The position numbers and the translations under genes were made by a program. DNA of 49,280 bases, taken from positions 1 to 49,280 of the forward strand of contig MEWJ01000032.1 of assembly GCA_001773385.1 (NCBI GenBank), given 5' to 3'. The notes under the pieces were generated by a model that did not search any database, was not told the DNA's origin, and saw only the letters and a program-made list of their open reading frames with translations. This DNA comes from a candidate division WWE3 bacterium RIFOXYD1_FULL_43_17. GTDB lineage: Bacteria > Patescibacteriota > WWE3 > UBA101185 > UBA10185. Positions 158 through 34,069 of this stretch are shown here, in pieces. The number at the start of each line of letters is the position of its first letter. Position 1 is the stretch's first letter.

Positions 158-189
158 TGGCTGGCGGCGTGGAAATTAGTTGGAACCTT
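158..189 (+). repeat. Left att junction of element A (core TGGCTGG = reverse complement of tRNA-Gln 3' end CCAGCCA, followed by P-type arm)
   Basis: 7-bp identity with 24929-24935. Reads WLAAWKLVGTLLINN* in frame from the TGG (stop at 203-205), with an in-frame stop just upstream (143-145), so it is an orphan LSR C-terminus. Confidence 0.75.
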
Positions 190-190
190 A

Positions 191-823
191 TTAATTAATA
201 ACTGATCCATAACCTTCATTCTTAAATAACGTTTTCAAAGATTGCATTATAATTTGATAGCTCAAAGACACTATTTTGTAATATGCTAACACCTTAAAAG
301 CGTCTGGATTAACCATGTCCTCTTTTTTCCCATTTACTCTACACAGGGCGTCTACATAAATTCTTACTGAATAAGAAAATACAGTATTTTCATCTAAATG
401 TTTTCTAATGACTTTAGAATCGCTATAAAATCTTCGATCTACAATAGACAAATCGTATGCGTCAAAAACTTTTTTAACAAACTCATTTTCGGATATTCCA
501 ACATCGCTTATAAATTGTGTGTTCCCACGGTCGGCTAGAAACGAGGATGTTACCGCAATTATCATGTTCTTAAATAAACCAAGACATGAAACATAATCGG
601 TAAACGCATCTTTAAATTCCTCGAAAAGTTTTAATTGATTTTTGTCCCGCGTAAGGCCGTCTAGTAATGACGCTATCGTGGAAGTGGCACCGGACATGAA
701 AAGCTCCTCAAAATTTGTAAATGCTTTTTCCGAATACCTCCTGACGATGTCCTCGTGCACTTGTCTAATTACCTTGTTCGTAACTTCAGACTTCTGAATA
801 TCTAAATCCAAAAGGTAGCTCAT
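191..823 (-). CDS. Hypothetical helical protein (element A cargo)
   Basis: 210-aa ORF, no motif recognised. Confidence 0.7.
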   Translation of the reverse strand: MSYLLDLDIQKSEVTNKVIRQVHEDIVRRYSEKAFTNFEELFMSGATSTIASLLDGLTRDKNQLKLFEEFKDAFTDYVSCLGLFKNMIIAVTSSFLADRGNTQFISDVGISENEFVKKVFDAYDLSIVDRRFYSDSKVIRKHLDENTVFSYSVRIYVDALCRVNGKKEDMVNPDAFKVLAYYKIVSLSYQIIMQSLKTLFKNEGYGSVIN

Positions 824-926
824 ATTTTTATTTTACACCACAATTGTGACTGAGGGGCAATTTTGTAGCTTTTTAAAAAAGAAACAGGAGTTACTAGTAT
901 AATACAAATATTTAGGAGGTGATTTT

Positions 927-1235
927 ATGGATAAAGGATTAGAGTTTGAATACTGGATAAGTAATACGCTTCCGTGGCAGCTAAATTTAAGTCCTTCCAA
1001 ATCTTGTGGGGTAGAGCAAATATTTGGTGCTTTTGCTGACTATGTGCGCCCTATTGCAGGTAAAGCTCCAGAAGAATTTGAACAGTTTTTTAAGGTTTTA
1101 AAATCCAAGATTGAGGAAGTATATAAATTCAAGGCGCCGAAGGGGTATCGAGCCTATCCAATTACTATCGATGGTGACTTTGATAAATACCCAAATGGGG
1201 ATATAAGGTACAAGATACAGAAAAACAATTTTTAA
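927..1235 (+). CDS. Hypothetical protein
   Basis: 102-aa ORF preceded by strong SD AGGAGGTG (914-921) and TATAAT (898-903). Confidence 0.75.
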   Translation: MDKGLEFEYWISNTLPWQLNLSPSKSCGVEQIFGAFADYVRPIAGKAPEEFEQFFKVLKSKIEEVYKFKAPKGYRAYPITIDGDFDKYPNGDIRYKIQKNNF

Positions 1236-1280
1236 TTACCGCTAGTTAAAGATATGGATATGGGAATTAGTGGAAACATT

Positions 1281-1949
1281 CTAGTATGTGCTATCTGGGT
1301 CAATATCAAACTCACGGATTTTTTTAAGCCTCTTTATAGAAGATATGCTCTTGTTAGGCCACAAACTCTCTAGTTCTTGAGCAGCTTCAAGTGTTAATGA
1401 CTCATCAAGTTCTTCAGTATCGACCGAGTATATCCCTCTACGCACTCCTTCAATTAGCTCAATAACATAATCGTTAACTTTTGTTATCATAACAGCCGCA
1501 TCTACGCCTTTAATTGACATAATGGGATTTAGTATTTTTCCATTTAGTCTTTTTTTACCTTGTTTCTTGGTAAGTCCAACATAAGTAGCATTCTGTTTTT
1601 TTTCGTCATACTTTCCGGAATTAATATTCTCTGCAATTTTAAAATAGCGTTTTGTGAACTCGTCCTCCACCTTACTTGAAAATCTTATTTGCTTATCCTT
1701 GTGTGAATACAATAAATCAACAATCATTTTTTCATATTCTGGATTTATACCTTTTGGGTTATCGAACATTTGAAAAACTACATCTTCTAATAAGTTAGAT
1801 TTTCCTATTTCCTCTTGAGCTATTATCGATAACTGAAATGCTGTAGGAAAAGATTTGTTTTTATACATAAAAATAGAGTCTTTATGCAATCTTAAAGCAT
1901 TTAAAAATGACATCCCAGACATCTTTGACAATCTTTTTCTAATATTCAT
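1281..1949 (-). CDS. AbiV-family abortive infection protein (HEPN-like)
   Basis: NALRL..DS....K.SFPTAFQLSIIAQEEIGK, SHKDKQ and KKQNATYV segments match the AbiV family pattern. Confidence 0.75.
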   Translation of the reverse strand: MNIRKRLSKMSGMSFLNALRLHKDSIFMYKNKSFPTAFQLSIIAQEEIGKSNLLEDVVFQMFDNPKGINPEYEKMIVDLLYSHKDKQIRFSSKVEDEFTKRYFKIAENINSGKYDEKKQNATYVGLTKKQGKKRLNGKILNPIMSIKGVDAAVMITKVNDYVIELIEGVRRGIYSVDTEELDESLTLEAAQELESLWPNKSISSIKRLKKIREFDIDPDSTY

Positions 1950-2077
1950 ATCTTTCGTTTGTGAACAAAAGAATTATAACACTCAATTCTGTGCTATAGG
2001 ACGCGACTGTTGGCGTAGTTAGAGATTATCTAAACAGACGATTAACGTGTAGTAGGGTACCCACCCATTTTCGTAAG

Positions 2078-2422
2078 TTATCTTAAGTATGATTGTATGC
2101 AGTTCTTTATAGTGGCTTGTCTGGTATTAGGATCTGCCGGGTCATGGTACGGTTTACCATCTGAAGCATCTATTATTGCCTGCTCTCTTGTGCATATACC
2201 TGTATAAGAACAGAACGAAAGAACATCTGATACGGCTTCATTAAATTCCGCAATTGCTTCATCTGTTTTCTCAACACAATATTTTTTAGCGTACTCATTT
2301 GTTTGGAACTGTTGGGCTTGGTGTGTTTTTTGAGGAGTATATATGACTAGATAATAGAAAAACGCTACTGCAAGAAGCAATGCCGATAAGGCGAGTAACA
2401 AAGGTACGATAGTATTTTTCAT
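2078..2422 (-). CDS. Small membrane-anchored exported protein, Cys-containing
   Basis: MKNTIVPLLLALSALLLAVAFFYYLV N-terminal TM helix; four Cys in soluble part; ATG at 2422 preferred over the TTG start at 2443. Confidence 0.7.
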   Translation of the reverse strand: MKNTIVPLLLALSALLLAVAFFYYLVIYTPQKTHQAQQFQTNEYAKKYCVEKTDEAIAEFNEAVSDVLSFCSYTGICTREQAIIDASDGKPYHDPADPNTRQATIKNCIQSYLR

Positions 2423-2560
2423 ACTTGGGTACGCTGTGAGCAATCTAAACTCTCATAACACATCTAGTATTATAGTAGTCCATTATCCTGTTACCAACAA
2501 CAGTAAAATATTCTACATTACAGAACTGTTACTTAAAAACAAAAATGCCGGTTTAATGGC

Positions 2561-2589
2561 TTGACATTTAGAACGATTAGAACTATGTT
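2561..2589 (+). promoter_or_regulatory. sigma70-type promoter for rep-LSR operon
   Basis: TTGACA (2561-2566), 17 bp, TATGTT (2584-2589); TTAGAAC direct repeat in the spacer. Confidence 0.55.
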
Positions 2590-2809
2590 CAGTTCAACAA
2601 CAGAGATCCAAATTGTTGTTACTCCTAGCGTCCATTTTTAACTCAAGTGAATAAAGACTCTTTACGCGAAAAGGAGTTATTACGGCTTTTTTTCCACAAC
2701 AAATTCCAAATAAATCTTAATGATAGCGACTTACAAGAGTCGTACATCTCCCTTTTGTTTTTGGCGAAAGCCATAAGTAGATATTTAAGTTTAAAAGGAA
2801 ACCTAACTT

Positions 2810-3676
2810 ATGAAAAAAAGTTATAGAGTTGTTCCTCCTGAGGGCGGTAGCCCTCAGGATACTCGACTTGATAGTACCGTCTTAAATGGGACAAACCTTG
2901 GACCATTTTTGAGGCAAGTAGGAAAAAGGATAGAAAATATTAGATTCAGCAACGTTAAAATTGTAAAAAGTAATAATTATTACGAGATTCACGTACCCGA
3001 ACGTCCATTTCTTCTTGGTACACGGCAGCAAAGCTGTTCTCATGAAAAGGAATACAGTAGGTCCCAAGAATATAGAGCAAGAAGCGTAAAAAGAGCTAAA
3101 GACACAATTCGTAGGCTAGTAATAGGCAACTTTACTACAACGGCAAAATTTTTAACGCTAACATTTAATCAAGACCTTTGCGACTTTGATATTAACGATC
3201 TCTCAGCATGTAACAAAAGCATGAGTATTTTTTTTCATTTACTACGACGTTTGTATGGGAATTACAAATATGTTTCTGTAGCGGAGTTTCAGCAAAGAGG
3301 GGCAGTACACTATCATGTTCTAAATGATTTACCGTATATTGATAAAAATGTAATTTATAACTTCTGGGGTTTGGGTTTTATAGACATAAAGAAGTTACAC
3401 AGAATAGAAACAGCTGCTATGTATTTGCTTAAGTATCTGAGCAAGGGTTTGAATGATGAACGATATAAAAATAAAAGAATATATTCTGCTTCAAAAAATT
3501 TAATTAGGCCCGTTAATATTTACAACTCACGTGCTGAAGATATTAAAAGAATATTAGAACAAATGCGAGAACCGGACTTTAAATATGTGTTAAAAAGTAC
3601 GGAAAACGGAAATATATTTGTATCGGAATATATTTTAGGATATAACCTAGGAAACAATGAACCTAACAGACCATGA
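2810..3676 (+). CDS. Rolling-circle replication initiator (HUH endonuclease)
   Basis: Motif I FLTLTF, EFQQRGAVHYH (motif II HUH), motif III YLLKYLSK with two Tyr. Confidence 0.85.
   Translation: MKKSYRVVPPEGGSPQDTRLDSTVLNGTNLGPFLRQVGKRIENIRFSNVKIVKSNNYYEIHVPERPFLLGTRQQSCSHEKEYSRSQEYRARSVKRAKDTIRRLVIGNFTTTAKFLTLTFNQDLCDFDINDLSACNKSMSIFFHLLRRLYGNYKYVSVAEFQQRGAVHYHVLNDLPYIDKNVIYNFWGLGFIDIKKLHRIETAAMYLLKYLSKGLNDERYKNKRIYSASKNLIRPVNIYNSRAEDIKRILEQMREPDFKYVLKSTENGNIFVSEYILGYNLGNNEPNRP
2836..2873 (+). other. Putative double-strand origin (dso): hairpin plus nick-like CTTGATA
   Basis: Perfect 10-bp stem TCCTGAGGGC/GCCCTCAGGA (2836-2859), then CGACTTGATA, resembling phiX174 CAACTTG|ATA and pC194 CTTG|ATA nick sites. 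Confidence 0.65.
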
Positions 3677-5180
3677 TCAGAAAAATAATAAATATGTGAT
3701 GTATTGTAGAAAATCTACTGATGAGTCTAATAAGCAAGTGCAGTCTTTAGCAACACAATGGCGAATGCTAACCGATTTCGTTAAAGATAACGACCTTGAT
3801 TGTTCGTATTTTTTCCAAGAAGCAAAAAGTGCCATGGACGAAAATAATAGACCTGATTTTAACAAGATGGTTGAGTTAATAACCGAAGGTAAGGTCGATT
3901 CAATACTAGTTTCGCACCTTGACCGACTTAGCAGGAACAGGGTTGAGATCGGCAGATTGATCCAGCTATACCAGAAGGGGAAACTTAGGGAAATTAGAAC
4001 TCCATACCGCAGATATAACACAAGCTACGACATATTCTCTATGGACTTTGAATTCATGGTTTCCGCTCAGTACTCGGATCGTTTATCCATGCGCGTAAAA
4101 GAAGGTAATCAATCTAAAGTATTAAAAGGCGAGTTTCCCGGTGTAGCAAAAATTGGTTATTTAAACAGAGATCGTAAGATTGTTCCGGATCCCCTGACTG
4201 CTCCGTTTATCAAGTATGCCTTCGAGATCTTCTCCCAAGGTGGTGTTAGTCTCCGCATTCTCTCCGAAACTCTCTACGATCGGGGCCTACGCACAAGAAA
4301 CGGTAAAAAATTGCACGTCTCGGGTGTGGAGAGAGTACTAAAAGCTCCCTTTTACGTCGGGAAGTTTTATTTCAACGGAGTTTTGTACAAAGGTTCGCAC
4401 ACACCACTTGTCTCCGAGGAATTGTTTTGCAAGGTACAAGAGATGTTTAAAGACAGATCTAAGCCTAGACCATCTTTTCATTTTGAAACGTTTCCGTATC
4501 GGGGGTATTTAAAGTGCGAAGTATGCGGTTGTGCAATAACGGCTACCCGAAAAAAGGACCACAATTACTATTTCTGCACGAACAGAAGAAACAGGTGTGA
4601 CCAACACAAAACATATATGAGGGAAGAATATATAGATGTCGTCATTAATAAGTTTTTCGAGCATATATCTTTCGATAAAGAGATGGCAGATAAATCCCTA
4701 GAAATATATGTTTCAAAATTACAGAGCGAAGTGAGTGTAGCAGAGGATAATGAAAAGAAGATTAAAAATCAGGTTAGTTTACTCACCGAAAAGAAAGAGA
4801 TACTTGTTGATTTACTCTTGAACAAAAACATAGATAAGAAATTATACGAAAGTAGAGCTTCTAAAATTGATACTGAGATTAAGGAACTAGAACGTGGATT
4901 GATAAGAAAAAATATTGAGAATGTAGAGTCCGTACGAAACTATGTTGGAACCATAAAAAATACCGGTATATCAATTAAAGAGATGCTAGAGTGTGGAGAT
5001 ACCGAGGTTAGAAAAGATCTGTTAAGTTCGCTATGTTGGAACCTTTCTATAAGGGATGGAGAAATAGCGTCAGTACAATATAAAATGCCTTGGAAACTAT
5101 TCGAAAATGTATCAAAATCTCGGGAAATTGATAAATGGCTGTTCATCGGGGAACAAGTTCGAACTGCTATTTTAGTGTAA
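3657..5180 (+). CDS. Large serine recombinase A (resolvase + recombinase + zinc-ribbon + coiled coil)
   Basis: YCRKST catalytic motif, LDRLSRN, CEVC...YYFC...C zinc ribbon, coiled coil; overlaps rep by 20 nt. Confidence 0.93.
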   Translation: MNLTDHDQKNNKYVMYCRKSTDESNKQVQSLATQWRMLTDFVKDNDLDCSYFFQEAKSAMDENNRPDFNKMVELITEGKVDSILVSHLDRLSRNRVEIGRLIQLYQKGKLREIRTPYRRYNTSYDIFSMDFEFMVSAQYSDRLSMRVKEGNQSKVLKGEFPGVAKIGYLNRDRKIVPDPLTAPFIKYAFEIFSQGGVSLRILSETLYDRGLRTRNGKKLHVSGVERVLKAPFYVGKFYFNGVLYKGSHTPLVSEELFCKVQEMFKDRSKPRPSFHFETFPYRGYLKCEVCGCAITATRKKDHNYYFCTNRRNRCDQHKTYMREEYIDVVINKFFEHISFDKEMADKSLEIYVSKLQSEVSVAEDNEKKIKNQVSLLTEKKEILVDLLLNKNIDKKLYESRASKIDTEIKELERGLIRKNIENVESVRNYVGTIKNTGISIKEMLECGDTEVRKDLLSSLCWNLSIRDGEIASVQYKMPWKLFENVSKSREIDKWLFIGEQVRTAILV

Positions 5181-5186
5181 AACCAC

Positions 5187-5471
5187 TTAGTACACTGTTT
5201 GAGGTTTTATATTGCAGTTAATTCGAATCCAGTCTAAGTCGTAGTCCCCCATTTCTTGTCTTTCTCCATCAATAACAAAATATTGGCGTAAGTTCACTGT
5301 TTTATCATCTTTAACACTTGGCATTTGGTTATCAATCCATGCATCTGGACACACTCTTTTTTTACCGGAAATTATAGATGTGTTGCGGGTTTTAAGAATT
5401 AGTAGAACAAAGGTCAGCGATACAACAACCAGGAGTATGCTAAATATGATTCTTTTTATAGGACTGCTCAC
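5187..5471 (-). CDS. Small membrane-anchored protein, translationally coupled to the giant protein
   Basis: N-terminal TM helix, CPDAWIDNQMP...WIRINC Cys pair; ATGA overlap at 5468-5471. Confidence 0.75.
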   Translation of the reverse strand: MSSPIKRIIFSILLVVVSLTFVLLILKTRNTSIISGKKRVCPDAWIDNQMPSVKDDKTVNLRQYFVIDGERQEMGDYDLDWIRINCNIKPQTVY

Positions 5472-8400
5472 TTTCTTTTTCGTCTAAGAATAATTATGGT
5501 ACCAATACTTAAAACAACCAAGCTAGGAATGATATATCTCCAAATATTTGATTTACGAGTTTCTTCAACAACACTGGGATTATCTTTCTCTACATCTTCC
5601 AAACCTAGTACATTCTTTGTCTCATCACCTGATTCAAGAACCTCGTCAGTAGCCGCAAGAGTTGTGGGACTCTCGTAGGTATTGATAATGACCTTTTCCT
5701 GAGTTGATGGAATCTCTATTGATATTGTCTTCGTGTTGCTTCTGTTACCAGCCCCGTCCTCAGAAACTAGTTTGAAGTAATATGTTTTACCTTCTTTAAC
5801 ATCATTTACTGTCACATCTTCATCGTCCCTATCATTTTCTGCTATTCTTGAGTCGCTATTTTTGTCAAAGCTTTCACTGTATCCAAGATATACAAACACT
5901 TTGTCTATATCGCTGTCATTATTTTCCCAAGTTAATTTTATTGTTTTATCATCGCTGTCGTAGCCTACTCCAACGTTTTCAGGCCTATCTGGGGCTTCTG
6001 TATCTTCTTCTACGGCCTTTTTGGTTGTAAAGCTTAGCTCATCACCTACAACTTCAGGTGACCCATGCGAGACCGCTCTGTAATAATATGTTGTTTCGGC
6101 AGTTAATGGACTAATAGTTACATTATGACTAATTACCATAGGCGAACCATCCGTCTCAATAGTTGAATAAGCATAACCATAGTTTGGAGCTGTACCTAAA
6201 GTTGGATGTGACGCCGTATCATATATTACTCTACTAGTGCTCAGATGATCTGTCGTCCATGTAATTGTTATGCTGGTACTCTCAAGATTAGTAGAACTTT
6301 CCCCTGAAATAACTGGAGGAGGTAATACTGTAATATCTATGGTAGCTTCATTACTGTCATATTCTCCATCGTTTGTTTGGTATGTAAAACTATCGTTGCC
6401 TATATAACCCGTATCAGGTGTATATGTTACTTGATTTCCTGAGACCGTTGATAAGGAACCATTTGTTGGGTCAGAATTAATCGAATAGACAAGTGGATCA
6501 TTTTCAATGTCATTGCCTAATAGGGTTATCGATATCGCTGCCTCTTGAGTAGTTGAGTATGCATCAGCGCTCACGGTTGGTGCATCATTTACAGGATTAA
6601 TGGTTAGATTAACAAAACCCGTGTCTGTTAGAGTACCGTCTGACAGAGTGTATTCAAAACTTGCTGCTCCGTTATAGTTATTTACCGGAGTGAATATAAT
6701 ATTTGAACCGTCTATATAAACTGTACCGTGTGTTGGGGTTGAAACTCCGATAACAGAAAGTGTATCAAGATCAACGTCGGTATCGTTTGTAATTAAGTCA
6801 TTTTTAGCTAATATCAACTGCGTATCTTCGTCAAAAGATGCGTTATCTTGATTTGCTTCTGGAGCGTCATTCACCGAATTCACAGTAATATTTACAGTTA
6901 CGATATTGCTATCAGCCAGACCATCATTAACTTTGTATGTAAATGTATCAACCCCATTATAATTCGTATCCGGTGTATAAGTTAATTCATTTCCTGAAAT
7001 TGTTCCCAAAGTTCCATGATTTGCACCGGTTTCAACTGTATATGTAAGAGTGTTTGCTGGAATATCAGCATCGCTAGCATTTAAAATAATGCTTTTTGAA
7101 ACGTCTTCATTTGTTGATGTGTTTACATCTTGTGCAACTGGAGAGGTGTTAACTTCATTAACTGTAATCTCTATTTCCTCAGAATCAGTGTAAATTCCAT
7201 CAGTTACATTAACAGTAACATTATAAGTATTAGGTCCTTGTACCTCTGTAGGTGTAAAACTAAAATTGCCTGTATCAGATTCTATTGAAGCTCCTGTTGG
7301 TGCATTTGTTAGAGAAAGTTCAAGAGCATCGCTTGTATCAGAATCGTTTGCTGTAACCGTAAAGCTAAGTTCTGCTAACTCATCAATAGATTTATCGCCA
7401 ATTACATCAAGAGCTGGTAGATCATTTATAGCATTGATTGTGATAGTAACTGTACCTGTGTTACTTTCAAAATTACCATCGTCCACCTTGAATGTAAATG
7501 AATCGCCACCAAAGTAGTTTTCATTAGGAGTGTAAATGACTTGATTTCCGTAAGGTCCTCCAAGCGCTCCGTTAGATGTACTATCTATTATTGTATAAGA
7601 TAAACTATCACCCTCAATATCTGTACCTACTAAGTATATTGAAACTGAATTATCCTCGTCTGTAACAGCAGTACCATCATTAACAGAAGGCGCATCATTT
7701 ATAGGATTAACTGTTACTAAAACGGTAGTTGTATCTGTTAACGAACCGTCGGAAACAGTGTAATCAAAGCTTGCTGATCCAAAATAATTAGAAGTTGGAG
7801 TGAATATAACATTAGAGCCATCAATAGATACCAATCCGTTTACTGGGTTAGAAATTGAACTTAAAACTAATGAGATATCGTCAACATCAGTGTCATTTTC
7901 AATTAGAGTCTCTTTTGAAACGGACAAAGTATTATCTTCATCAACAGAAGCAGAGTCGGGATTTGCTACGGGGGCGTCATTGAAGGCGGTAACAGTTATA
8001 AATACAGTTGCGGTATTGCTATCCGTTTCGCCATCATTTGCTTTATAAGTAAAGGAATCGTCGCCGTAAAAATTTGCATTTGGTGTATAAGTAGCACTGT
8101 CATTCAAAATTGAAATCGTACCGTTAGATGGATCTGTTACCTTTGCATACGTAATGGATTGCGTAGGAATATCAGAATCTGTAGCATTAAGCGTTATAAT
8201 TTTTTCCAAATCTTCCGATGTTGCGGCATTAACATCGTTCACTAAAGGAGCTACATTTATCTCATTAACGGTTACAGTTATTATTTCAGTATCTATGCTT
8301 ACCCCATCCGTAACATTTACATCAAACGTGTATTCCTGAGGACCTTGTGACTCTGAAGGAGTAAAGCTGAAATAACCACTGTTAGTATCTATAGTGGCTC

Positions 8401-16357: not shown

Positions 16358-16397
16358 TTTTACAACAATAGGTGCCTTTTTAAGATAAAATGTAGCC

Positions 16398-16889
16398 ATG
16401 AACATACTTGAAACAAAATCCTATGTGGAGAGCTTTATAGCGTCTTCAAATGGAAAGAAATATACGCCAGATGAGATGATTAATATGATAAAAAAATATA
16501 CAAATATTACGCTTGGCGATGAAAACCCTGTATCAGGAACTCCAAGTCTTGGATATATTAACTCCAATATTAAAGGGGTTTATTACATAATTTACTGTGA
16601 TGCGTGTAATGCAAAGTGTAGAAAATCCTACCCTACTATTCTAAACATTAACGGGAATAAGGTCATGAAGTTTTTATGCGGTAGCTGTGCGGGTAAGAAA
16701 TATGAGCGTAAAAAGGAGTATGAACGAAAAGCTTTAGAATATCTACTTCACCCCGAAAAGCTTGGTTCTATGAACTACCGTAATCTTTCACTTAAACAAA
16801 GCCTAGCGATATTAGAAGCAGGTTTTATTGAAGATAAGATAAGGGAACGAGCCGAAAAGAACGCATCAAAGTATTTAGGCGATAGCTGA
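16398..16889 (+). CDS. Hypothetical protein with CxxC...CxxC zinc finger
   Basis: CDAC and CGSC motifs; TAAAAT 6 nt upstream of ATG. Confidence 0.7.
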   Translation: MNILETKSYVESFIASSNGKKYTPDEMINMIKKYTNITLGDENPVSGTPSLGYINSNIKGVYYIIYCDACNAKCRKSYPTILNINGNKVMKFLCGSCAGKKYERKKEYERKALEYLLHPEKLGSMNYRNLSLKQSLAILEAGFIEDKIRERAEKNASKYLGDS

Positions 16890-16957
16890 TTGCACATATA
16901 AATTAATTGTGTTTTTTCATTGTTCCTGTGCAGTATTAGCGGTATAATTGTGTTAGT

Positions 16958-17386
16958 ATGACGGAAAAAAACGAAATGCAAAACAATGAGGAATTAAAGA
17001 GTAAATTTATACAAGAGCGTGCAATCGGCAAATCTTTTAAGGAGATATCAACAGAACTAAATTTACCAGTTGAGACCCTTGTAGTTTGGGCAAAAACTTT
17101 GAAGTATGACATCGGTAATCAAAAAGCTATTGAGATGGATGAGCTCTCAAATAAGTTTAGAATAACGAAAAGACGAAGAATAGAGCTTATTGGCAGCATC
17201 CTTACTAAAATGCAGGACGAACTCGACACACGGGATTACAAAGATGTTCCAACCGATAAACTGTTTGATTATCTTCTCAAGTACTCTGCAGAACTCAACA
17301 GGGAATATACACCGCCTGTATTTACCGAAATCGTCTCAGGTATGGGTCCTAGTATATGGGAAACCGAAATAACGTGGACTGGCTAG
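16958..17386 (+). CDS. Helix-turn-helix protein
   Basis: RAIGKSFKEISTELNLPVETLVVW HTH pattern followed by helical region. Confidence 0.7.
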   Translation: MTEKNEMQNNEELKSKFIQERAIGKSFKEISTELNLPVETLVVWAKTLKYDIGNQKAIEMDELSNKFRITKRRRIELIGSILTKMQDELDTRDYKDVPTDKLFDYLLKYSAELNREYTPPVFTEIVSGMGPSIWETEITWTG

Positions 17387-17430
17387 AATCTAAATTGTAA
17401 AAATATATCTGCCCAAATATTAAAATTAAT

Positions 17431-19548
17431 ATGAACAAAGACAGGTTATTTGAGAATCTAGTAAATAAGAATAATTTAGAAAAAGCATTTGACTATCTTT
17501 TAGTTGAAATAGAGAACTCTAGTCTTGCAATTGACCCTATATGGACCCCCGCACTGCAAGCAATAAAAAAAAACAGAAAAACATATTTCAACGCACTAAG
17601 TGAACTCCTTATAAACGGATACTTCCAAGCAGACAAAGCAAGATATTTTAAATTTCCGAAAGACAATTTGGGAATTAGGCCGGTCGCAATACTATCTATA
17701 ACAGACAGGATTATCTACCAAGCTATATTTCTTAAGCCCGTATTAGGTAACGTCTTAAAGACTAAATATACACAACCGCCTTGTTATACACCAAACCTAT
17801 CGTCAGAAACAGAAAAAACATATTTAGAAGACTGGCACCAGAAATGGGATGATTACATTAACGATCAAGTTAAAGCATATAGAGACGGTTATATATACAA
17901 AGTAGACCTTGATGTGAAATCATTTTTCGATAACATCAACCACGAACTAATAAAAGATTTTTTAGTGAAAGAATGTAATGTAAACGGAACAAAGGTATTA
18001 GAGATACTTATGAACCTGCTTTCGACCTGGGCACATAAACCTGGTTTTGGTGTTCCCCAAGGACCTGAAGCTTCTATATTCATCGCATCGGCTTTTCTCT
18101 CGCAACTTGATGATAAAGGTATTTCGTTAAGCTCGGAGTTAGAGTTTAGACAATTTAGATACAATGACGACATTTGTTTGATGGCAAAAACCCCCGAAGT
18201 ATTACACCAACTAATAGAAGTACTTTCAAATTATCTTTTTGATATATTTCTAGAACTAAATGGTAAAACTTCATTTTGTCTACTGGACGAGGGCGAACTA
18301 TTAAAGTTAGCAAAACGACGCATTTACTCACCTTATGGTATTAATGAAGATTCTTTATACACAGTACTTAACATTGAGAACTCCATACCAGATTATTTAA
18401 TCAAACTTAGAAATAATCGGCAATTAGAACAGTATGAGGTATCAGCACTTAAATATTATCTTAAAGGCGCAAAGAATAGAGCTTACTGTACCCGTTTTAT
18501 CGACCTGCTTGATAAATCTCACTCACTCTCACTTTACATTTGTAGGTATGTCCAAAAATTTGTAGACGATGCGTCTGTTTATAATTACTTGTGTAAAACA
18601 TATAGCGAAAAACACTTATATTCATGGTCTAAATTTTGGGTGCTTAAAACGCTAATTTCATCTAAACACTTTCAAGATAAGAAAAATTTAGAAAGTTCTA
18701 AAACCCTTGTATTAAACGGCCTGAACGATAAAAGTTGGGAAATAAGGTCATTGTGCCTGTATATTGCCGAATTATTTGGATTTATAAGCGATTCAAGTGC
18801 GCTAATCAGTAAACTCCACAAATCAGCAGATAACATCTTTGAAAAAAGTATGACCACTTATTTATTGGGAAGTAAGAATGAATCAGGGATGATGTCTGAC
18901 TTACTAAGAAGTAACTGCACAGATTTACAAATAATTGCTTTTAGTGCCCTAAATAAACCAGACTTATCAAACTTACCCAATGACCTATCACCATTTAGCC
19001 AATATTTATTAAAAATTAACAACACTAGTACTGTATCCAGTAGTACATCAGTTATTCAACACTCTCTGCTTGATTTAGTAAGTGAGTGTGGGGCTGTGCA
19101 TATAAGTTTAGATACAACTAAACTAAGCAAAGAGCTTGGGTTAACTTGGAATCAAAATAATAGCGGGAAGCTTAAAAGGTCTAAAAAAATTGTACATTGG
19201 GTAGAACTAAACTATTCTGGAGAACTAGTGATGGACAGTGCTTATATTCTATCGAAGCCGAATATTGATAGTGAAAATGAATGTTTCATTTCCTATGTTA
19301 TCAATCGTTCTGGCAAGAATATAACTAAAAAAGATATTGAGAATGACCAAAATATTAAGATAACAAGGTCTTTTAACAACATATTAAATGATTTGGGTTT
19401 TAAGGGTGAGATAAAAAAGCTGTTCTTCCCGATAACAAGTGCGGGAGAAGTGAGGTTTTTCAGAAAGTTGAAGCAGATAGATGTCACATCGTCCTCCATA
19501 GACGAAAAGAAACTGGAGAAACAACTCAAAAAACTCAGACCCTTTTAA
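17431..19548 (+). CDS. Reverse transcriptase (UG/Abi-like architecture) with alpha-helical repeat region and extra C-terminal domain
   Basis: PKDNLGIRPVAILSITDRIIYQA, DLDVKSFFDNINH, GVPQGPEAS, catalytic RYNDD (18160-18171), LELNGKT; HEAT-like segments; Ser/Thr linker; C-terminal about 115-aa domain. Confidence 0.88.
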   Translation: MNKDRLFENLVNKNNLEKAFDYLLVEIENSSLAIDPIWTPALQAIKKNRKTYFNALSELLINGYFQADKARYFKFPKDNLGIRPVAILSITDRIIYQAIFLKPVLGNVLKTKYTQPPCYTPNLSSETEKTYLEDWHQKWDDYINDQVKAYRDGYIYKVDLDVKSFFDNINHELIKDFLVKECNVNGTKVLEILMNLLSTWAHKPGFGVPQGPEASIFIASAFLSQLDDKGISLSSELEFRQFRYNDDICLMAKTPEVLHQLIEVLSNYLFDIFLELNGKTSFCLLDEGELLKLAKRRIYSPYGINEDSLYTVLNIENSIPDYLIKLRNNRQLEQYEVSALKYYLKGAKNRAYCTRFIDLLDKSHSLSLYICRYVQKFVDDASVYNYLCKTYSEKHLYSWSKFWVLKTLISSKHFQDKKNLESSKTLVLNGLNDKSWEIRSLCLYIAELFGFISDSSALISKLHKSADNIFEKSMTTYLLGSKNESGMMSDLLRSNCTDLQIIAFSALNKPDLSNLPNDLSPFSQYLLKINNTSTVSSSTSVIQHSLLDLVSECGAVHISLDTTKLSKELGLTWNQNNSGKLKRSKKIVHWVELNYSGELVMDSAYILSKPNIDSENECFISYVINRSGKNITKKDIENDQNIKITRSFNNILNDLGFKGEIKKLFFPITSAGEVRFFRKLKQIDVTSSSIDEKKLEKQLKKLRPF

Positions 19549-19550
19549 AA

Positions 19551-19580
19551 GACTACGAAGTACTACGAAACCCTATGAAA
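19551..19580 (+). promoter_or_regulatory. Triple 10-bp phased direct repeat upstream of replication operon
   Basis: GACTACGAAG TACTACGAAA CCCTATGAAA directly after the RT stop codon. Confidence 0.5.
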
Positions 19581-19619
19581 CAGGGCATTTATACCCCATA
19601 CCGTTGATATTCTGTCATT

Positions 19620-19877
19620 GTGAACGACAGAATTAATAATAAACAAATTAATACATATAGAAGCACCGATTTAGCAATCACAAGCTTTTTATCGCTTTCC
19701 TTTAATCTCATAGCATTGGAAAAAGTTGAGGGTAATCGTTATGAATTTGTGTTTGAACGTACACCAGAACTAGAGAAAGCAATAGAATCCTTTTTCAACA
19801 ATACCGCAAAAGTTAGTCCCACAGATTATTTCAATTCAATAAAAAGTATCAAATCGAGGATTTATTCCAGGAGTTAA
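19620..19877 (+). CDS. DUF5659-like protein
   Basis: YRSTDLAITSFL...LEK....YEFVFE.TPELEKAIESFF....VSP..YFNSIKSIKSRIY pattern; GTG start. Confidence 0.7.
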   Translation: MNDRINNKQINTYRSTDLAITSFLSLSFNLIALEKVEGNRYEFVFERTPELEKAIESFFNNTAKVSPTDYFNSIKSIKSRIYSRS

Positions 19878-19879
19878 AG

Positions 19880-20086
19880 ATGTTGCCTGTTCAAGCAGTT
19901 ATTGAGTGGAAAGAAATATACAAGAAGACAACAGGAGTTGACCTAAGCATTGAGGACGCCACGGAAAGGGCAAATAGGATGTTTAGATTTTTATCGAATA
20001 TTACGAAGCCGAAAAGAAGTAGAAAATTAAAAATTTTTGAAGGGGGTGATAAAGATGGCAAGAAAACTAACAGTAAAAAAGTCTGA
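19880..20086 (+). CDS. Small hypothetical protein of integrative element
   Basis: 68 aa, in operon between DUF5659-like gene and SSB-like gene. Confidence 0.65.
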   Translation: MLPVQAVIEWKEIYKKTTGVDLSIEDATERANRMFRFLSNITKPKRSRKLKIFEGGDKDGKKTNSKKV

Positions 20087-20438
20087 ATCTATCAAGCCAA
20101 TTCCAGGTGATGTTTATCCTGCTAAATTGGTCCGAATTGATGACGGAGAAGGAGGTTTTGGCGAGTATTACAAATTTGTTTTCGAGATATCAGAAGAATC
20201 TGCGTATCAAGGGGAACAAAGAACATTGCTTGCAAGCCGTAAGCTATCCAGAAGTCCGAAAGGCGAAAGTAAGCTTCTAAACATTTTAGAGGTATTAGCA
20301 GGCAACAAACTGGAGTTGGAAGAAGAAGTTGATGTTGACGATTATGTTGGAAAGAAATGCCGAATCTTGGTTGAGGAACCAAAAGAAAGAGACGGCATGA
20401 TTATCCAAAATGTCACGCAAGTTCTACCTACAAAGTAG
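20055..20438 (+). CDS. Putative ssDNA-binding OB-fold protein (DUF669-like)
   Basis: PGDVYPAKLVRI...YYKFVFEI...YVGKKCRILV pattern; SD GGGGGTGA before ATG at 20055. Confidence 0.55.
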   Translation: MARKLTVKKSESIKPIPGDVYPAKLVRIDDGEGGFGEYYKFVFEISEESAYQGEQRTLLASRKLSRSPKGESKLLNILEVLAGNKLELEEEVDVDDYVGKKCRILVEEPKERDGMIIQNVTQVLPTK

Positions 20439-20449
20439 TATTTAATTTT

Positions 20450-20486
20450 GGTCGGGGGCATTTGCTTGTACCAAGTGTCCCCTACC
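20450..20486 (+). other. GC-rich hairpin between SSB-like gene and primase
   Basis: GGGGCATTTG...CAAGTGTCCCC imperfect inverted repeat; no U-tract on + strand. Confidence 0.45.
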
Positions 20487-20504
20487 TACAAAGAGATTTA
20501 ACAA

Positions 20505-22859
20505 ATGAATTATACCAATAATGAATATATAAAAGAACCTGCGGAGTTCCTAACCGATTGGGGTATCAATTATTCTGATACCAAAAAGGAACTTCGAACC
20601 CTGTGTTTATTTAGTGACTGCGATTCGGATAAATCTGACTACAAACTAGGTCATCTATATATTTCGTCAACCACAGGGCAATATAATTGTAAAAAATGTA
20701 ATGCTACGGGAAATCTCGTGACATTAGCAAAACATTTAGGCATTGATGTTGCTACCCTATATCAGAAGCAAGGCAGGATTAAAGCACGGACTAAAAAGGC
20801 GGAGGTAAAAAACGGGCAACCTGAAAAGGTTTACGATGACGATTTAACTAATGAAGCAGTCGAATGTCATGAGGAGCTTACTACTGCTCATCGCCAATAC
20901 TTTGTAGACAGGGGGTTATCCAATGAAACAATTGATAAATACCTGCTAGGAGAAGCCGAGGTGGGTGGTTTGCAATGGTTAACAATACCCATATTTGATG
21001 AAAATAATCGAGTAATATTTTTTAAGCTAAGAAGACTGCCAGAACAGGAAGAAACTAATCCTACAAAATATAGATATACGAAAGACGCCGAAGCTAGTGT
21101 TTACGGTGTAGAAATTCTAAAAGATGTGTTAAATGAGCCAGTCATTATTACCGAAGGTGAACTTGATTGTCTTGTATTAAGGGATTTAGGTTTTAAGGCT
21201 GTATCTTCTACTGGTGGTGCAGGTACTTTCAAAAATAAATGGGTAGATTACTTTGATAAGGTCTCTGCTGTATTTTTTGCATTTGATAATGATGAAGTTG
21301 GAATTCGTGAAGCCGTTAATCACGCCAAACTGTTTAGAAACAAAGACGTCTATATAGTAGATATACCTAAAATTGAAGGCATAAAAGACATTTCTAACTA
21401 CAGAACAAGTCAAAAGACTAAGGAAGATTTTGAAAAATTACTAAAAGAAGCTAGAAAGTATGACCCCTATAAGTTAGAGTTTTCAGGTATTCAGTTTGCA
21501 GATGCTTTAACAGAATTTATTCCCGCACAGTATTTCACTTCGAATAATGCATATTTGACCCTACAACTGAATGTTAAAAATGAGGATACCGTGGATAAAG
21601 AGACCTATGTAATCAACTCTGAAAGGCAAATAGTCCCTTTAGGTTTATTTCTTAAGACGAATAACTATCTTTCTACAAGAGAACCAAAATTTCCTCAAAG
21701 ATGGTCAACTGAATCATTGGATAGATATTTGAAGAAAAACGATATATCATTAGACTACTTTTCTTTACTTGATAAAACCGTCGGGACGCTAAAATATTAT
21801 CTGGACCTTAATCACGAGGATTGGTATCTGGTTGTAGCTCTCTGGGTTTGGGGAACATACTTTTATAGGCTTTTCGGTTCATATCCCTATTTCAACATCA
21901 ATGGACTTATGAACTCAGGCAAGACAAAACTGCTTGAGTTATGCAGTGAGCTGGCTTTCAATGGTAAATTCTTAATGGGTAGCACTCCTGCTTTTGTTAT
22001 AAGGGAAATACACGAAAATAGTTCTACGATATTTTTAGATGAGGTGGAAAGCCTAAAAAAGGCTTCTACACCTGAAGCACAAACATTGTCCTTAATGCTT
22101 AATTCTGGTTACAAGGCAGGTCCACGAGTTGGAAAAATGCAACCTACAGGTACAAAGGGTTGGGATTCAAAAGAATACGACCCCTACTCCCCTAAAATGA
22201 TTGCAGGCATAAGCGATGTGTCCGAAACATTACAATCCCGTTCCTTAAACTTAACTATGCTTGCAAGCAACAATAAGGAAATTAAAAACCGAGAGCTTGA
22301 AACAACTTCACGTTCTTTCAAGGAGTTAAGAGACGGTTACTACTTATCCGTGATGGACCTGCATAAAGAAATGTTCAAAACATATAAGACATTAACAGAA
22401 ACCAATATTCAGGGACGAAATTGGGAAGTGTGGCGACCCATTTTTACATTGGCAAAAGTTATTGATGATAGAACCCAGCGAGATGGTTTAACCTACAACT
22501 TGGTTAGAGATTTTGCTTTAGACCGAATACATATCGCATCTAGTGTATCTGCCGATGACCAAACTGTAATTCAGCTACTTTTAGCCTTAAAAGACATGAT
22601 GGAAAGTGAGACAAAACGAGAGGCATTTTATCCGACAATAAATCTTAAGACTTTTTTGAAAACAGAGCATGCCGATGACTTTGGATGGCTAGAAAGCACT
22701 AACTATATAGGCGTATTGCTTAGAAGGTCTGGTGTAGTTCTACAAGGGTCTGAAATAAGACGATTAGGCGGTAAACCAATGAGAGGTTATCTTTTGAACC
22801 TAGATGTAATAAATGAGCGACTAAAAGCCTTGGGATTTGAATATGGCGAAATCAAGTAA
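20505..22859 (+). CDS. Primase-helicase fusion (Zn finger + TOPRIM + P-loop ATPase)
   Basis: C....C...H......CKKC zinc finger; ITEGELD and AFDND TOPRIM motifs; Walker A GLMNSGKT and Walker B IFLDE. Confidence 0.85.
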   Translation: MNYTNNEYIKEPAEFLTDWGINYSDTKKELRTLCLFSDCDSDKSDYKLGHLYISSTTGQYNCKKCNATGNLVTLAKHLGIDVATLYQKQGRIKARTKKAEVKNGQPEKVYDDDLTNEAVECHEELTTAHRQYFVDRGLSNETIDKYLLGEAEVGGLQWLTIPIFDENNRVIFFKLRRLPEQEETNPTKYRYTKDAEASVYGVEILKDVLNEPVIITEGELDCLVLRDLGFKAVSSTGGAGTFKNKWVDYFDKVSAVFFAFDNDEVGIREAVNHAKLFRNKDVYIVDIPKIEGIKDISNYRTSQKTKEDFEKLLKEARKYDPYKLEFSGIQFADALTEFIPAQYFTSNNAYLTLQLNVKNEDTVDKETYVINSERQIVPLGLFLKTNNYLSTREPKFPQRWSTESLDRYLKKNDISLDYFSLLDKTVGTLKYYLDLNHEDWYLVVALWVWGTYFYRLFGSYPYFNINGLMNSGKTKLLELCSELAFNGKFLMGSTPAFVIREIHENSSTIFLDEVESLKKASTPEAQTLSLMLNSGYKAGPRVGKMQPTGTKGWDSKEYDPYSPKMIAGISDVSETLQSRSLNLTMLASNNKEIKNRELETTSRSFKELRDGYYLSVMDLHKEMFKTYKTLTETNIQGRNWEVWRPIFTLAKVIDDRTQRDGLTYNLVRDFALDRIHIASSVSADDQTVIQLLLALKDMMESETKREAFYPTINLKTFLKTEHADDFGWLESTNYIGVLLRRSGVVLQGSEIRRLGGKPMRGYLLNLDVINERLKALGFEYGEIK

Positions 22860-23002
22860 CATTTGTAACACCTACGCTTATACATTGTCACAGCGACAAT
22901 ATTTCCCGTTACAAAAATGTTACACATCAAGATGTAGTATTTGTAACATTTCTGTTACAGGCTTATTTGTTGTCGCTAAAGGATATTATGTTTAATGTAA
23001 CA
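22856..23002. repeat. Iteron-like GTAACA/TGTTAC cluster, putative replication origin of element B
   Basis: GTAAC(A) or its complement at about 22856, 22865, 22908, 22918, 22942, 22953, 22996 in both orientations. Confidence 0.65.
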
Positions 23003-23242
23003 AAAATACAAAAATATGAGGACTTAACAAAACTTAACATTTCAGAGCTTATGGTATATGAGATTGAACTTCAGTCTTACCTTCAAACACACGAGCCCGA
23101 TATGTCAAAACAAGGAACAGTGGATGTAAATGACAGACCTTTTGACAGACAACTTTATGAAGAAAAGAAGCAACAATGGTATTCAATTTGGGTCGAGTAT
23201 TTTACGCGACCTGTTGAGGAAGGACTAGATATTAAGTTATAA
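22967..23242 (+). CDS. Small hypothetical protein
   Basis: ORF between primase and LSR; start uncertain (ATG at 22988 possible), overlaps repeat cluster. Confidence 0.45.
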   Translation: MLSLKDIMFNVTKIQKYEDLTKLNISELMVYEIELQSYLQTHEPDMSKQGTVDVNDRPFDRQLYEEKKQQWYSIWVEYFTRPVEEGLDIKL

Positions 23243-23344
23243 TTTTAGTGTTGAATAGATTTAGTTACGAATGTGTAAATAGCCGTATTGGTATAAATGC
23301 ATTCGTGCATCTATTCAACAACCAGTACGGCTTTTTATATTAAT

Positions 23345-24991
23345 ATGGATTTTTTAGTAAACAAAGATATACAAAATAAAAACGGCATTGAATACTGTAG
23401 AAAATCTACGGAGTCAGAAGACCGCCAAGCCTTTTCTCTTAAAGACCAACATGATGTCAATTTTAAAGTAGCGGAAAGATATGGTGTAAAAGTTAAAAAA
23501 TCGCTTCAGGAATCAATGTCTGCCAAGAAAAGAGGAAGACCGTTTTTCAATGAAATGGTTGCAAGTGTTGAAAGTGGTAAATATGAAGTCATTGTATGTT
23601 GGGCATTAAACCGTTTAGCCCGTAATTCAGTTGATGGTGCGATGCTAATTGAGTTGATGGATAATAAAAAGCTTCATGCAATTCTAACTCCTGGAAAAGT
23701 CTACTATAACAGTGGCGACGACAAGCTGTTACTTCAAATAGAATTTGGATTAGCTAAGAAATATTCCGATGATTTAGGACCTACTGTGTTAAGAGGTATG
23801 TATTCAAAGCTTAAGCGTGGTTGGTATCCTGGTCCTGCAAAGCCTGGTTATATCAATAGAAAAGAAAAAGGCGAAATAATACAGGTAATAGATGAAGAAC
23901 GATTTCCACTATTAAGAAAGGGTATTGAAATGTACCTAGAAGGAGCAAGAGTCGAACATGTACTTGAGCTACTAAATGATAAGTGGGGTTATAAAACCAT
24001 ACAAACTGAAAAAACAGGAAATAAACCTTTATCAATATCAAGCTTTTATCGAATACTAAACGACAGTTTTTACTTTGGAAAAATAGTGTGGAACGGTGAG
24101 GAAGGTGAGCTTAATCCCGAAGTACCAAAACTTGTGTCCGAGAAAGAGTTCTGGGATATACAACGAAGACTTGGTGCAAAAGGTATTTCAAGACCTTCAA
24201 AACACATGGAAGTCCCCTACCGAAGCATCATTAAATGTTCAGAGTGTGGAAGCGCCATAATCACTTACCCCAAAATTAAGAAACTAGCTTCAGGAGAAAC
24301 AGTAGTTTATTTATATGCTAAATGTTCAAGCAAAAAACATTGTACACAGAAGCACATCTCCGTTTCAAAAATTGAAAAGCAACTTAATGAGATTGTGAAA
24401 ACCGTAGAAGTGTCTCAAGACTTCCATGATTGGTTTTTGAAATGGCTAAAACACGACCATCAAGTTGAAACTACTGAAACCGAAGTTCTACTACAAAGAA
24501 TAGACGCACAGATTGAAATCCAACATAAACGAAGAAATAATTTATTTGAGATGAGACTTAATGGCGAAGCGGTTGAAGTTGAGTATAGGACCAAGAAAGA
24601 AGAAATCGAAGTTGAAATCAAAAGATTGGAAAAAGAAAGAGCGGGGGTTAAGTACGCGTCTGACGATTGGATTAAAAGAGCTGAAAAACGCATTAACTAC
24701 GCTTTATACGCAAGAGACACTTTAGAAAATGGTGATTACTTACAAAAATCAAGTGTACTTTCGGATTTGGGTTCGAACTTTTTGCTAAAAGAGGGTTTAC
24801 TCTTTGCTGACATAGACCCGATGCTTGCCGTCTTCAAAAAACACTATGAAATTGTTAATAAGGATTTAATAGGGTTCGAACTGGAAGATAAGTTGTTAAA
24901 TCAAGCTAACTCTGAAATTTTGAAATCATGGCTGGGGGATAGGGATTCGAACCCCAATAGGCGGGACCAAAACCCGCAGTCCTACCGTTAG
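23345..24991 (+). CDS. Large serine recombinase B; C-terminus read antisense through tRNA-Gln
   Basis: YCRKSTE motif, LNRLARN, CSECGS...C....C zinc ribbon, coiled coil; ends WLGDRDSNPNRRDQNPQSYR; alternative start 23297. Confidence 0.93.
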   Translation: MDFLVNKDIQNKNGIEYCRKSTESEDRQAFSLKDQHDVNFKVAERYGVKVKKSLQESMSAKKRGRPFFNEMVASVESGKYEVIVCWALNRLARNSVDGAMLIELMDNKKLHAILTPGKVYYNSGDDKLLLQIEFGLAKKYSDDLGPTVLRGMYSKLKRGWYPGPAKPGYINRKEKGEIIQVIDEERFPLLRKGIEMYLEGARVEHVLELLNDKWGYKTIQTEKTGNKPLSISSFYRILNDSFYFGKIVWNGEEGELNPEVPKLVSEKEFWDIQRRLGAKGISRPSKHMEVPYRSIIKCSECGSAIITYPKIKKLASGETVVYLYAKCSSKKHCTQKHISVSKIEKQLNEIVKTVEVSQDFHDWFLKWLKHDHQVETTETEVLLQRIDAQIEIQHKRRNNLFEMRLNGEAVEVEYRTKKEEIEVEIKRLEKERAGVKYASDDWIKRAEKRINYALYARDTLENGDYLQKSSVLSDLGSNFLLKEGLLFADIDPMLAVFKKHYEIVNKDLIGFELEDKLLNQANSEILKSWLGDRDSNPNRRDQNPQSYR

Positions 24992-25002
24992 ACGATCCCC
25001 CA
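24929..25002 (-). tRNA. tRNA-Gln(UUG), integration target
   Basis: TGGGGGA/TCCCCCA acceptor, GCGGG-TTTTGGT-CCCGC anticodon arm, GGTTCGAATCC T-arm, encoded CCA. Confidence 0.97.
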
Positions 25003-34067: not shown

Positions 34068-34069
34068 AC

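Follow-up and report, generated by a model that had tools for sequence, protein, structure and literature searches.

The first 24.9 kb of a contig from the candidate division WWE3 bacterium RIFOXYD1_FULL_43_17 very probably hold an array of at least two mobile elements, each inserted by its own large serine recombinase (LSR) at the 3' end of a tRNA-Gln(TTG) gene. The window analysed here is that entire contig (MEWJ01000032.1, our C32; 49,280 nucleotides), one of 59 in an 863-kb assembly (G000), and its position 1 is a contig end. We refer to the left ~5.0 kb (158-5135) as element A, to the following ~19.8 kb (5136-24928) as element B, and to their recombinases as LSR-A and LSR-B. G+C content is 0.33-0.39 as far as 25,000 and 0.41-0.44 past tRNA-Gln(TTG). 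Two separate elements stacked at this tRNA gene had been proposed in an initial annotation made from the sequence, and the junctions, a related locus with a solitary A-type element (L032) and contigs from public sequencing runs all agree with that proposal. The argument depends on the following features:

1-157, no strand: left flank of the array; its final ~22 nt (136-157) form the left arm at the first junction
158-163, plus strand: core copy 1, TGGCTG, at the junction of left flank and element A; similarity to contig C58 stops at 164, and similarity to the A-type element of L032 begins at this core copy
164-205, plus strand: right (P') arm of element A, encoding the orphan tail (TTGGAAC, 180-186; stop, 203-205)
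3657-5180, plus strand: LSR-A, 507 amino acids, with Resolvase, Recombinase and Zn_ribbon_recom domains; the last 12 codons and the stop (5142-5180) lie inside element B
5136-5141, plus strand: core copy 2, TGGCTG, at the A/B junction, where public contigs change partner; the similarity of L032 and L033 to element A stops at 5141
5142-5180, plus strand: right (P') arm of element B, encoding the current tail of LSR-A (TTCGAAC at 5158-5164)
23297-24991, plus strand: LSR-B, 564 amino acids, with Resolvase, Recombinase and zinc-ribbon domains; the final 63 nt, stop included, lie inside the antisense of tRNA-Gln
24929-24934, plus strand: core copy 3, TGGCTG, at the B/tRNA junction, complementary to the 3' end of tRNA-Gln(TTG) (discriminator, CCA and 2 nt)
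24929-25002, minus strand: tRNA-Gln(TTG), intact (ARAGORN), the right (B') half of the chromosomal site

TGGCTG lies on the plus strand at exactly the three positions that the initial annotation gave. By itself the hexamer is at chance level (13 copies in the window, 13.2 expected), whereas the composite TGGCTG-N16-TT[CG]GAAC matches twice, at 158 and 5136, against 0.00 expected, and none of 100 shuffles had any match. Chance hexamers in a single insertion with two paralogous recombinase genes would fit the hexamer count, yet this reading is ruled out by the composite pattern and by the partner switches, exactly at 164 and 5136-5141, in C58, L032 and the public contigs; we hold it to be extremely improbable. 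Across the 863-kb assembly, TGGCTG has TT[CG]GAAC within 40 nt seven times, and five of these are the three window sites and two on C58. At the tRNA-Gln(TTG) core, TTCGAAC (24946-24952, the T-loop complement within the gene) follows after 11 bases, compared with 16 at both internal copies. The far ends and the tRNA gene have only TGGCTG(G) in common, and sequence diverges afterwards. A displaced tRNA fragment of at least 15 nt was not found as a direct repeat at the far end, which has just the 6-7-nt core and the shifted T-loop-like motif. The composite pattern and five independent lines of comparison, given below, and not the hexamer count, identify the three sites as true recombination junctions.

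The three tails behind the core read as annotated: WLAAWKLVGTLLINN and a stop from 158, without a gene; WLFIGEQVRTAILV and a stop on LSR-A; and WLGDRDSNP... on LSR-B. The WL-x5-V-[GR]-T spacing reported for the first two is present as well, and is the translation of the DNA motif (GTTGGAAC / GTTCGAAC, offset 21-28). Each LSR gene stands at the right end of its element and reads through the core, with the codons of B's left end serving as the tail of LSR-A and tRNA antisense as that of LSR-B. Each element has a single LSR gene, and these two are the only ones in the assembly. Both proteins carry the PF00239 resolvase domain (E 5.7e-18 in LSR-A, 4.1e-16 in LSR-B) with the motif YCRKST, whose serine we take to be the catalytic residue. 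They also match PF07508 Recombinase (48.7 and 28.3 bits; cut-off 21.1) and the PF13408 zinc ribbon (cut-off 25.3), the latter with 26.3 bits in LSR-A and, slightly below the cut-off, 22.6 in LSR-B; four Cys are invariant in the alignment (A2). The initial annotation called the two elements unrelated, which is right for the cargo, as the rest of element A and the rest of element B have no DNA similarity, but wrong for the LSRs, which are homologues (29% identity over 490 amino acids, E 4e-48). No small resolvase-only gene occurs among the scanned proteins. When 16 island proteins were compared with Pfam, none matched Phage_integrase (tyrosine recombinase), most open reading frames (ORFs) below 80 amino acids lying outside that scan.

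The junctions recur in relatives. The patatin-tRNA-Gln synteny of the window is also found in the congener G001 (a complete genome) and in L032. In G001, patatin and tRNA-Gln(TTG) are followed, directly at the tRNA end, by a 17-nt block identical to window 141-157, and in the 14.5 kb beyond the tRNA gene no LSR gene or right arm was found. The initial annotation had proposed that relatives without the island should have tRNA-Gln directly beside sequence 1-157; G001 lacks the island and has the adjacent block, with just 17 bases alike. L032, from a metagenome, holds a solitary 5,038-bp A-type element at tRNA-Gln(TTG), bounded by two plus-strand copies of TGGCTG. Its LSR gene is 86% identical in DNA to that of LSR-A up to exactly 5141, and then comes a tRNA-Gln(TTG) gene matching that of the window over 77 nt. 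The left core of L032 is followed by an arm closely resembling 164-189, and this homologous arm, at L032:3415, borders the solitary element, which also has the Rep-LSR gene pair of element A. L033 and L036 retain pieces of A-like LSR ends, and at the same core their similarity to the window either breaks off or carries on.

For public data, assembled Logan contigs of four runs (X1, X9, X13 and X14) were mapped on window 1-20000; runs that contain window DNA are groundwater and soil metagenomes. A-like LSR ends, up to 5141, pass directly into the first 11-23 bases of tRNA-Gln(TTG) in X1 (depth 13.9, 8 differences in 146 nt) and in X13 and X14 (depths 29.1 and 16.4, 80 differences in 884 nt). 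Conversely, the left 15 kb of element B, with 0 differences, are preceded in X9 (13 letters) and in two contigs of X14 by letters that differ from the window, the change falling at exactly 5136; translated by hand, those letters give the final codons of another LSR gene (...KS-WL). B's right arm remains with B where the left neighbour changes. The B contig of X1 starts at 5112, with the same joint to A that the window has. Element B has the greater depth of the two in X9 (96.3 vs 25.4 for A), X13 (22.9 vs ~4.5) and X14 (16.2 vs ~3). The positions of the junctions and the modular exchange of partners at them are established by sequence comparison, as is the family-wide reading into tRNA genes described next.

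LSR-B homologues occur in 43 of 60 related genomes and LSR-A homologues in 63 of 133 genomes of the class (E <= 1e-30); the nearest database homologue of LSR-A is assigned to a 'Candidatus Collierbacteria' metagenome-assembled genome, and no close relatives of either LSR were found in viral contigs. We surveyed 36 distinct loci, of which 32, with 34 LSR genes, passed the filter (ORF of >=300 amino acids, BLASTP E <= 1e-10). Three of the four excluded loci are cut by a contig end, and the fourth is a C-terminal remnant that itself abuts tRNA-Gln. Among the 34 genes, 31 cross the 3' end of a convergent tRNA gene, two enter the next element of a three-element array at tRNA-Ser, and one is broken, ending 360 nt before tRNA-Asn; counting this broken gene, the LSR frame reaches the core in 34/34 and never stops earlier. 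The target tRNAs have 13 identities (Pro, Asn, His, Trp, Arg, Leu, Gln, Ala, Ser, Asp, Val, Phe and Tyr). The TGG that complements CCA is read as Trp in 24 of the 29 automatically flagged cases and lies one base out of phase in the other five. This Trp codon, which stands at the crossover, is supplied by the CCA end that the tRNA genes encode, as all 38 tRNA genes found in the assembly do. An alignment search for the B family among species-representative genomes, with 10 kb examined at each hit, gave three loci, all at tRNA genes (Gln CTG, Gln TTG and Ala), whose left ends fall outside that span.

The same signature extends well beyond these loci. A family profile retrieved 8,939 cluster representatives at E <= 1e-30 from 1.84 billion proteins, a set that surely includes ordinary LSRs; the profile included tRNA-Gln tails and may slightly favour proteins that have them. 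Among the best 150 representatives, 91 have a T-arm-antisense signature (48 with Trp, 4 out of phase and 39 without Trp in register), 17 a right-arm-type tail, 17 stop <=5 residues past a Trp, and 25 are unclassified. Three internal 60-residue stretches, used as controls, gave 0 (Trp plus T-arm), 0-2 (out of phase), 2-6 (no Trp) and 2-3 (right arm), or 2-7 T-arm-antisense and 2-3 right-arm matches in total. P0060, P0088, P0112 and P0121 have Met or another residue at the CCA-derived Trp position, before a clear T-arm-antisense tail; their tRNA genes may lack an encoded CCA, or the core may be shifted. In the A family, P0002, P0003 and P0004 end, as L032 does, in a tRNA-Gln antisense tail, whereas P0005, 33% identical and encoded on a contig of 4,244 nt, has an A-type tail, WLRVWNDVGT..., such as a free or A|A-stacked element should produce. 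Seven B-family proteins have a tRNA-Gln tail, and the tails of P0007, P0009 and P0010 resemble the arm on C58.

Stacking is a normal state of such elements and not peculiar to the window, because arrays are also present in G010 and G019. In G010 (L045, G010:C24), positions 5636-17343 hold three head-to-tail LSR genes before tRNA-Ser(GGA), in elements of ~2.6, 4.7 and 4.3 kb. The core TGGCGG stands at 5636, 8253, 12929 and 17253, its first three copies followed after 16 bases by CTCGAAC, TTGGAAC or TTAGAAC, and the first two LSR genes end in the arm of their right neighbour. G019 (L047) has a pair of almost identical right arms, 1.85 kb from each other, ahead of an LSR gene at tRNA-His.

The spacing of the heptamer may reflect the architecture of the attachment sites. 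In A118-type integrases, the 9-bp motif read by the zinc ribbon lies at half-site positions 16-24 in attP and 11-19 in attB, a 5-bp shift (PMC3783163). Here the T-loop-like heptamer is at offset 22 in 13/13 right arms and at offset 17 in tRNAs, which is again a 5-bp shift; the 13/13 is inflated, as 6 or 7 of these arms were found without the motif and the others through a motif filter. The 13 arms are those at window 158 and 5136, C58:174, L032:3415, L033:851, L036:7102 and 10121, one in G003, three in G010 and two in G019; 12 of them match [TC]T[CGA]GAAC, and L033:851 reads TTGGAAA. By analogy, the zinc ribbon may bind the right arms and the tRNA T-arm in attP and attB registers. If the heptamers are zinc-ribbon motifs, half-site position 1 would be the last G of TGGCTG (5141, 24934) and the crossover would fall at ~5140-5141, with some uncertainty from the numbering convention of the paper; this agrees with the point at which similarity switches.

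These observations can be combined in the following, very probable mechanism. The attachment site of an element would straddle the end of its LSR gene: its left arm would be the last conserved LSR codons, the crossover would fall within the complement of the tRNA discriminator-CCA end (here TGGCTG, Trp-Leu), and its right arm would encode the last 12-18 codons. On integration, the right arm and the native tail that it encodes would come to lie at the element's far end, leaving an LSR gene that ends in tRNA antisense or, in an array, in the right arm of the next element. The tail would be swapped because the core lies inside the last LSR codons, and, since the left arm likewise ends in TGGC, the tRNA gene would be regenerated. 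Both LSRs are presumably active at present, the elements would pass through circular intermediates, and the crossover dinucleotide would be about 5140-5141.

The left boundary of the array is more complex. Window 1-164 equals C58:17-180 in 163 of 164 positions and opens contig C58, which leaves it directly after TGGCTGG for a different, related right arm (17 of the next 25 bases alike) with the tail WLDSWDLVGTFISNSFLKV and a stop. In the public runs, the 892-nt contig holding 1-164 has a depth of 96.9 in X1 and 54.5 in X9, compared with 42.4 and 25.4 for element A, and it also runs on into the C58 path in X1 and X14. Bases 1-164 are part of a two-copy, ~0.9-kb repeat of about double depth; no other contig of the assembly was found to overlap the remainder of this repeat. 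The repeat has a 32-amino-acid open frame. Searched in relatives, the left flank gave only a 26-nt match in G001, other matches being at chance level. Reading 1-157 as the native flank is not simply correct, with 1-164 duplicated and only the 17 bases beside the tRNA gene alike in G001. Features of C58 and sites of a motif in the left arms are as follows:

C58 (L001), after the right arm at 174: methyltransferase, 210-863, minus strand; amidase, 1015-1788, minus strand; then tRNA-Gln(CTG)
left-arm motif sites: window 136-157; L001 1836-1858 (flank of tRNA-Gln(CTG)); G001; G002; L015; L029; L036:10121; G019 (L047 ~5400 and ~7255; tRNA-His)

C58 174-1932 looks like a recombinase-less insert. In G003, a right arm stands beside a homologous methyltransferase and a degenerate 3' fragment of tRNA-Gln. 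The ~22-nt left arms share the motif TTG.T.TGACAA...AAA to the left of several cores, across tRNAs and organisms, and are too similar for unrelated native flanks. In G019, and likewise at a third site present in all four runs, repeats begin ~21-22 nt to the left of the core. We hypothesise that the left arms are end arms of recombinase-less modules in arrays, in which case the array would extend past the start of the contig. The motif was also considered as a general feature of tRNA trailers, and this was rejected: it stands at 1 of the 38 tRNA genes of the assembly, besides one tRNA-Gly match read as chance. A third kind of right arm, with the tails WLAVLHAI and WLAVLYAV before a stop and no TTCGAAC-like motif at offset 22, occurs at L041 (G002:C12) 8457-12015 and L033 3025; in G002 it borders a 3.5-kb recombinase-less insert behind a genus-typical tRNA-Gln(CTG) flank.

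Several observations, besides the inflated count of arms, weigh against two elements that each insert at the tRNA gene, or limit that reading. With 1-164 duplicated, the left end of the array as given here is provisional. The A-like ends joined to the tRNA gene are sequence variants, so they do not show the same A with and without B. Neither a circular junction nor an empty site in the organism's own population was found in the Logan contigs, which omit rare forms; among the joints listed for window 1-20000, a stretch that does not reach the third site at 24929, none is of the kind 5141->164 or 157->5136, which is not evidence of absence. The sole joint among those listed is a 560-nt skip in the giant gene of element B in X9. 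The shifted motif was not found in the left arms, and an inverted-repeat match between left and right arms, sought by eye, was nowhere convincing; the att-site model is half supported. Lastly, the pairing of an A-family LSR with a B-type tail is also found in L036, where DNA identity across the joint is 80%, and in P0020; the A|B joint may thus be old and inherited, or recurrent, rather than recent.

This last pairing is what one composite island would predict, in which A and B, once separate, have become a single 24.8-kb unit, mobile or fixed, and the junction at 5136 is a fossil, and the Logan contigs, with no separate circles, are compatible with it too. We nevertheless consider such an island quite unlikely: a 15-kb stretch of B recurs at 100% identity behind another left neighbour, which it joins at exactly 5136, the depth of B is 4-5 times that of A in X9, X13 and X14, an A-type element sits alone at the tRNA gene in L032, and both LSR genes are full length with all domains. 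The order of arrival is another matter. The initial annotation had A integrate first and B afterwards, an order that cannot be read from the structure, since both orders yield the same product. That B came first to the tRNA gene, and A was inserted afterwards to the left of B, into the hybrid site of flank plus B's right arm, is equally compatible with the final structure, as follows from the topology of site-specific recombination, and the left flank arm used by A would then be an ordinary one. Against this, B has the same sequence in two arrays, once with A and once with another LSR gene to its left, while the A-like ends vary from sample to sample, and B's right arm would offer an incoming A the element-type offset of 22, not the tRNA-type 17. 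We regard the reverse order as possible though doubtful; the identical B behind two left neighbours, compared with the variable A-like ends, is a hint, not proof, in favour of a recent arrival of B beside the tRNA gene. In those other contexts, the comparison covers B up to window position 20000.

What the tail exchange does for the enzyme, if anything, is a separate question. The LSR gene may overlap its own binding site for compactness, with any C-terminal tail tolerated and the exchange functionless, an explanation towards which we lean slightly. The tails are diverse (antisense of 13 tRNA kinds, 3 to >50 residues, two phases), the test on codons is weak (synonymous against non-synonymous differences of 4 to 3 and 3 to 5, spread over every codon position), and the conserved tail residues overlap the DNA motif. 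Set against this are the frame that reaches the core in every gene as counted, a stop codon kept at the same place in 3/3 B-type tails, and the ...[DE][VI]RT[FY]F... shared by right-arm tails of distant members, which extends beyond the 9-bp motif. A broader and more speculative view, to which we assign a low probability, is that a very large serine-recombinase clade, abundant in ultrasmall bacteria of the candidate phyla radiation/Patescibacteria type, uses the universal tRNA acceptor/T-arm end as its chromosomal half-site and has its crossover within its own final codons. Each integration, excision or stacking event would then rewrite the C-terminus, swapping the native hydrophobic ...[DE][VI]RT[FY]F-type tail for a polar tRNA-antisense or neighbour's tail. 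The rewritten tail, or the convergent overlap with a strongly transcribed tRNA gene, would sense the state of the element and set stability, expression or directionality of the recombinase, and modules that lack a recombinase but keep a conserved 22-nt end arm would share these arrays. A regulatory role of the tail is, taken by itself, similarly improbable.

Returning to the array itself, the other genes of the two elements are:

191-823, minus strand: element A gene, 210 amino acids, no family match in domain scans
1281-1949, minus strand: AbiV-like HEPN protein of abortive-infection type (PF18728, E 1.1e-15; PADLOC AbiV, E 1.6e-6)
2810-3676, plus strand: Rep, a replication initiator (PF23343 REP_ORF2-G2P, E 1.2e-16), with a 20-nt overlap with the start of LSR-A
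5468-16201, minus strand: surface protein of 3577 amino acids, with an S8 subtilase domain and ~20 immunoglobulin (Ig)/cadherin-like repeats (domains; internal DNA repeats)
17431-19548, plus strand: reverse transcriptase of a defence-associated class, best match UG19 (PF00078; PADLOC RT_UG19, E 3.7e-50)
20505-22859, plus strand: primase-like protein (Toprim; PF13155, E 2.5e-8)

Element A, with Rep, LSR-A and the AbiV-like gene, is a small plasmid-like integrating element, while element B also encodes a DUF5659 protein. In B, a secreted or anchored giant of 3,577 amino acids rides as mobile-element cargo in a 0.86-Mb genome. The X9 joint mentioned above falls in the repeats of its gene, where one contig (depth 6) omits 560 nt at window 7116-7677 and has 11 other letters at the joint; this is either repeat-number variation or an assembly slip. 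Further along, window 32917-45164 holds seven more tRNA genes (Val, Phe, Gly, Leu x2, Lys and Arg), all on the minus strand, and none of these seven has an LSR gene reading into it.

For the insertion of large DNA, serine integrases are the tools of choice, but each needs its own rare landing site. An LSR family that uses a conserved tRNA end as its half-site, with the gene kept intact, would find landing sites in almost any bacterium. It would also be a serine-recombinase counterpart to the archaeal integrases with the site inside their own gene, and a route by which defence genes (AbiV-like, defence-type reverse transcriptase) and giant surface proteins move between tiny uncultured groundwater genomes. 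According to PMC4383910, only tyrosine integrases target tRNA genes, a rule that the present finding overturns. The literature searched, with subscription journals mostly outside it and an earlier description therefore possible, gave no account of LSRs that target ordinary tRNA genes or have the crossover in their own last codons, and the word tRNA does not occur in a large LSR discovery preprint.

Several known systems share parts of this arrangement. SCCmec, with CcrAB or CcrC, is LSR-moved, integrative and non-conjugative, takes the 3' end of a conserved gene as its target and leaves that gene intact, and forms tandem arrays with repeated cores and recombinase-less 'cis-mobilizable' members. 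The same holds for the Dehalococcoides ssrA islands (DsiB, a CcrB-like LSR; PMC3146451), which target the T-loop region of tmRNA. Unlike both, the elements described here have a single LSR each and no CcrA+CcrB or DsiA+DsiB pair, and they use ordinary tRNAs of many identities and a core of 6-10 nt compared with 20 bp. Their LSR gene is tRNA-proximal and reads through the crossover into the tRNA gene, whereas dsiB lies beside attL on the reverse strand (PMC3146451).

Classical tyrosine-integrase tRNA islands (Islander/TIGER; PMC4383910) likewise target the tRNA 3' end, regenerate the tRNA and form tandem arrays; unlike them, the window has no displaced tRNA fragment of at least 15 nt and no tyrosine recombinase match. 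With A118/LI-type systems (Rutherford et al. 2013; PMC3783163), our LSRs share the domain set and, as a candidate parallel, an element half-site motif that lies 5 bp further from the centre than the chromosomal one (here 22 vs 17). In contrast to A118/LI, this concerns right half-sites only, by sequence alone, and the chromosomal half-site is a tRNA T-arm. In the integration-dependent immunity of some mycobacteriophages, attP lies inside the repressor gene, and integration by a tyrosine integrase rewrites the C-terminus and changes stability. There the altered protein is a repressor, while here it is the recombinase's own tail that changes. The SSV-type ('suicidal') integrases of archaeal viruses and plasmids come closer, in that the site lies inside the integrase ORF and tRNA integration alters the gene (PMC7253208). 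They are tyrosine recombinases whose gene is cut into two large inactive parts, whereas here a serine recombinase exchanges only its last 12-18 codons and stays full length. The nearest described systems are the CcrB-like tmRNA islands of Dehalococcoides and these SSV-type integrases.

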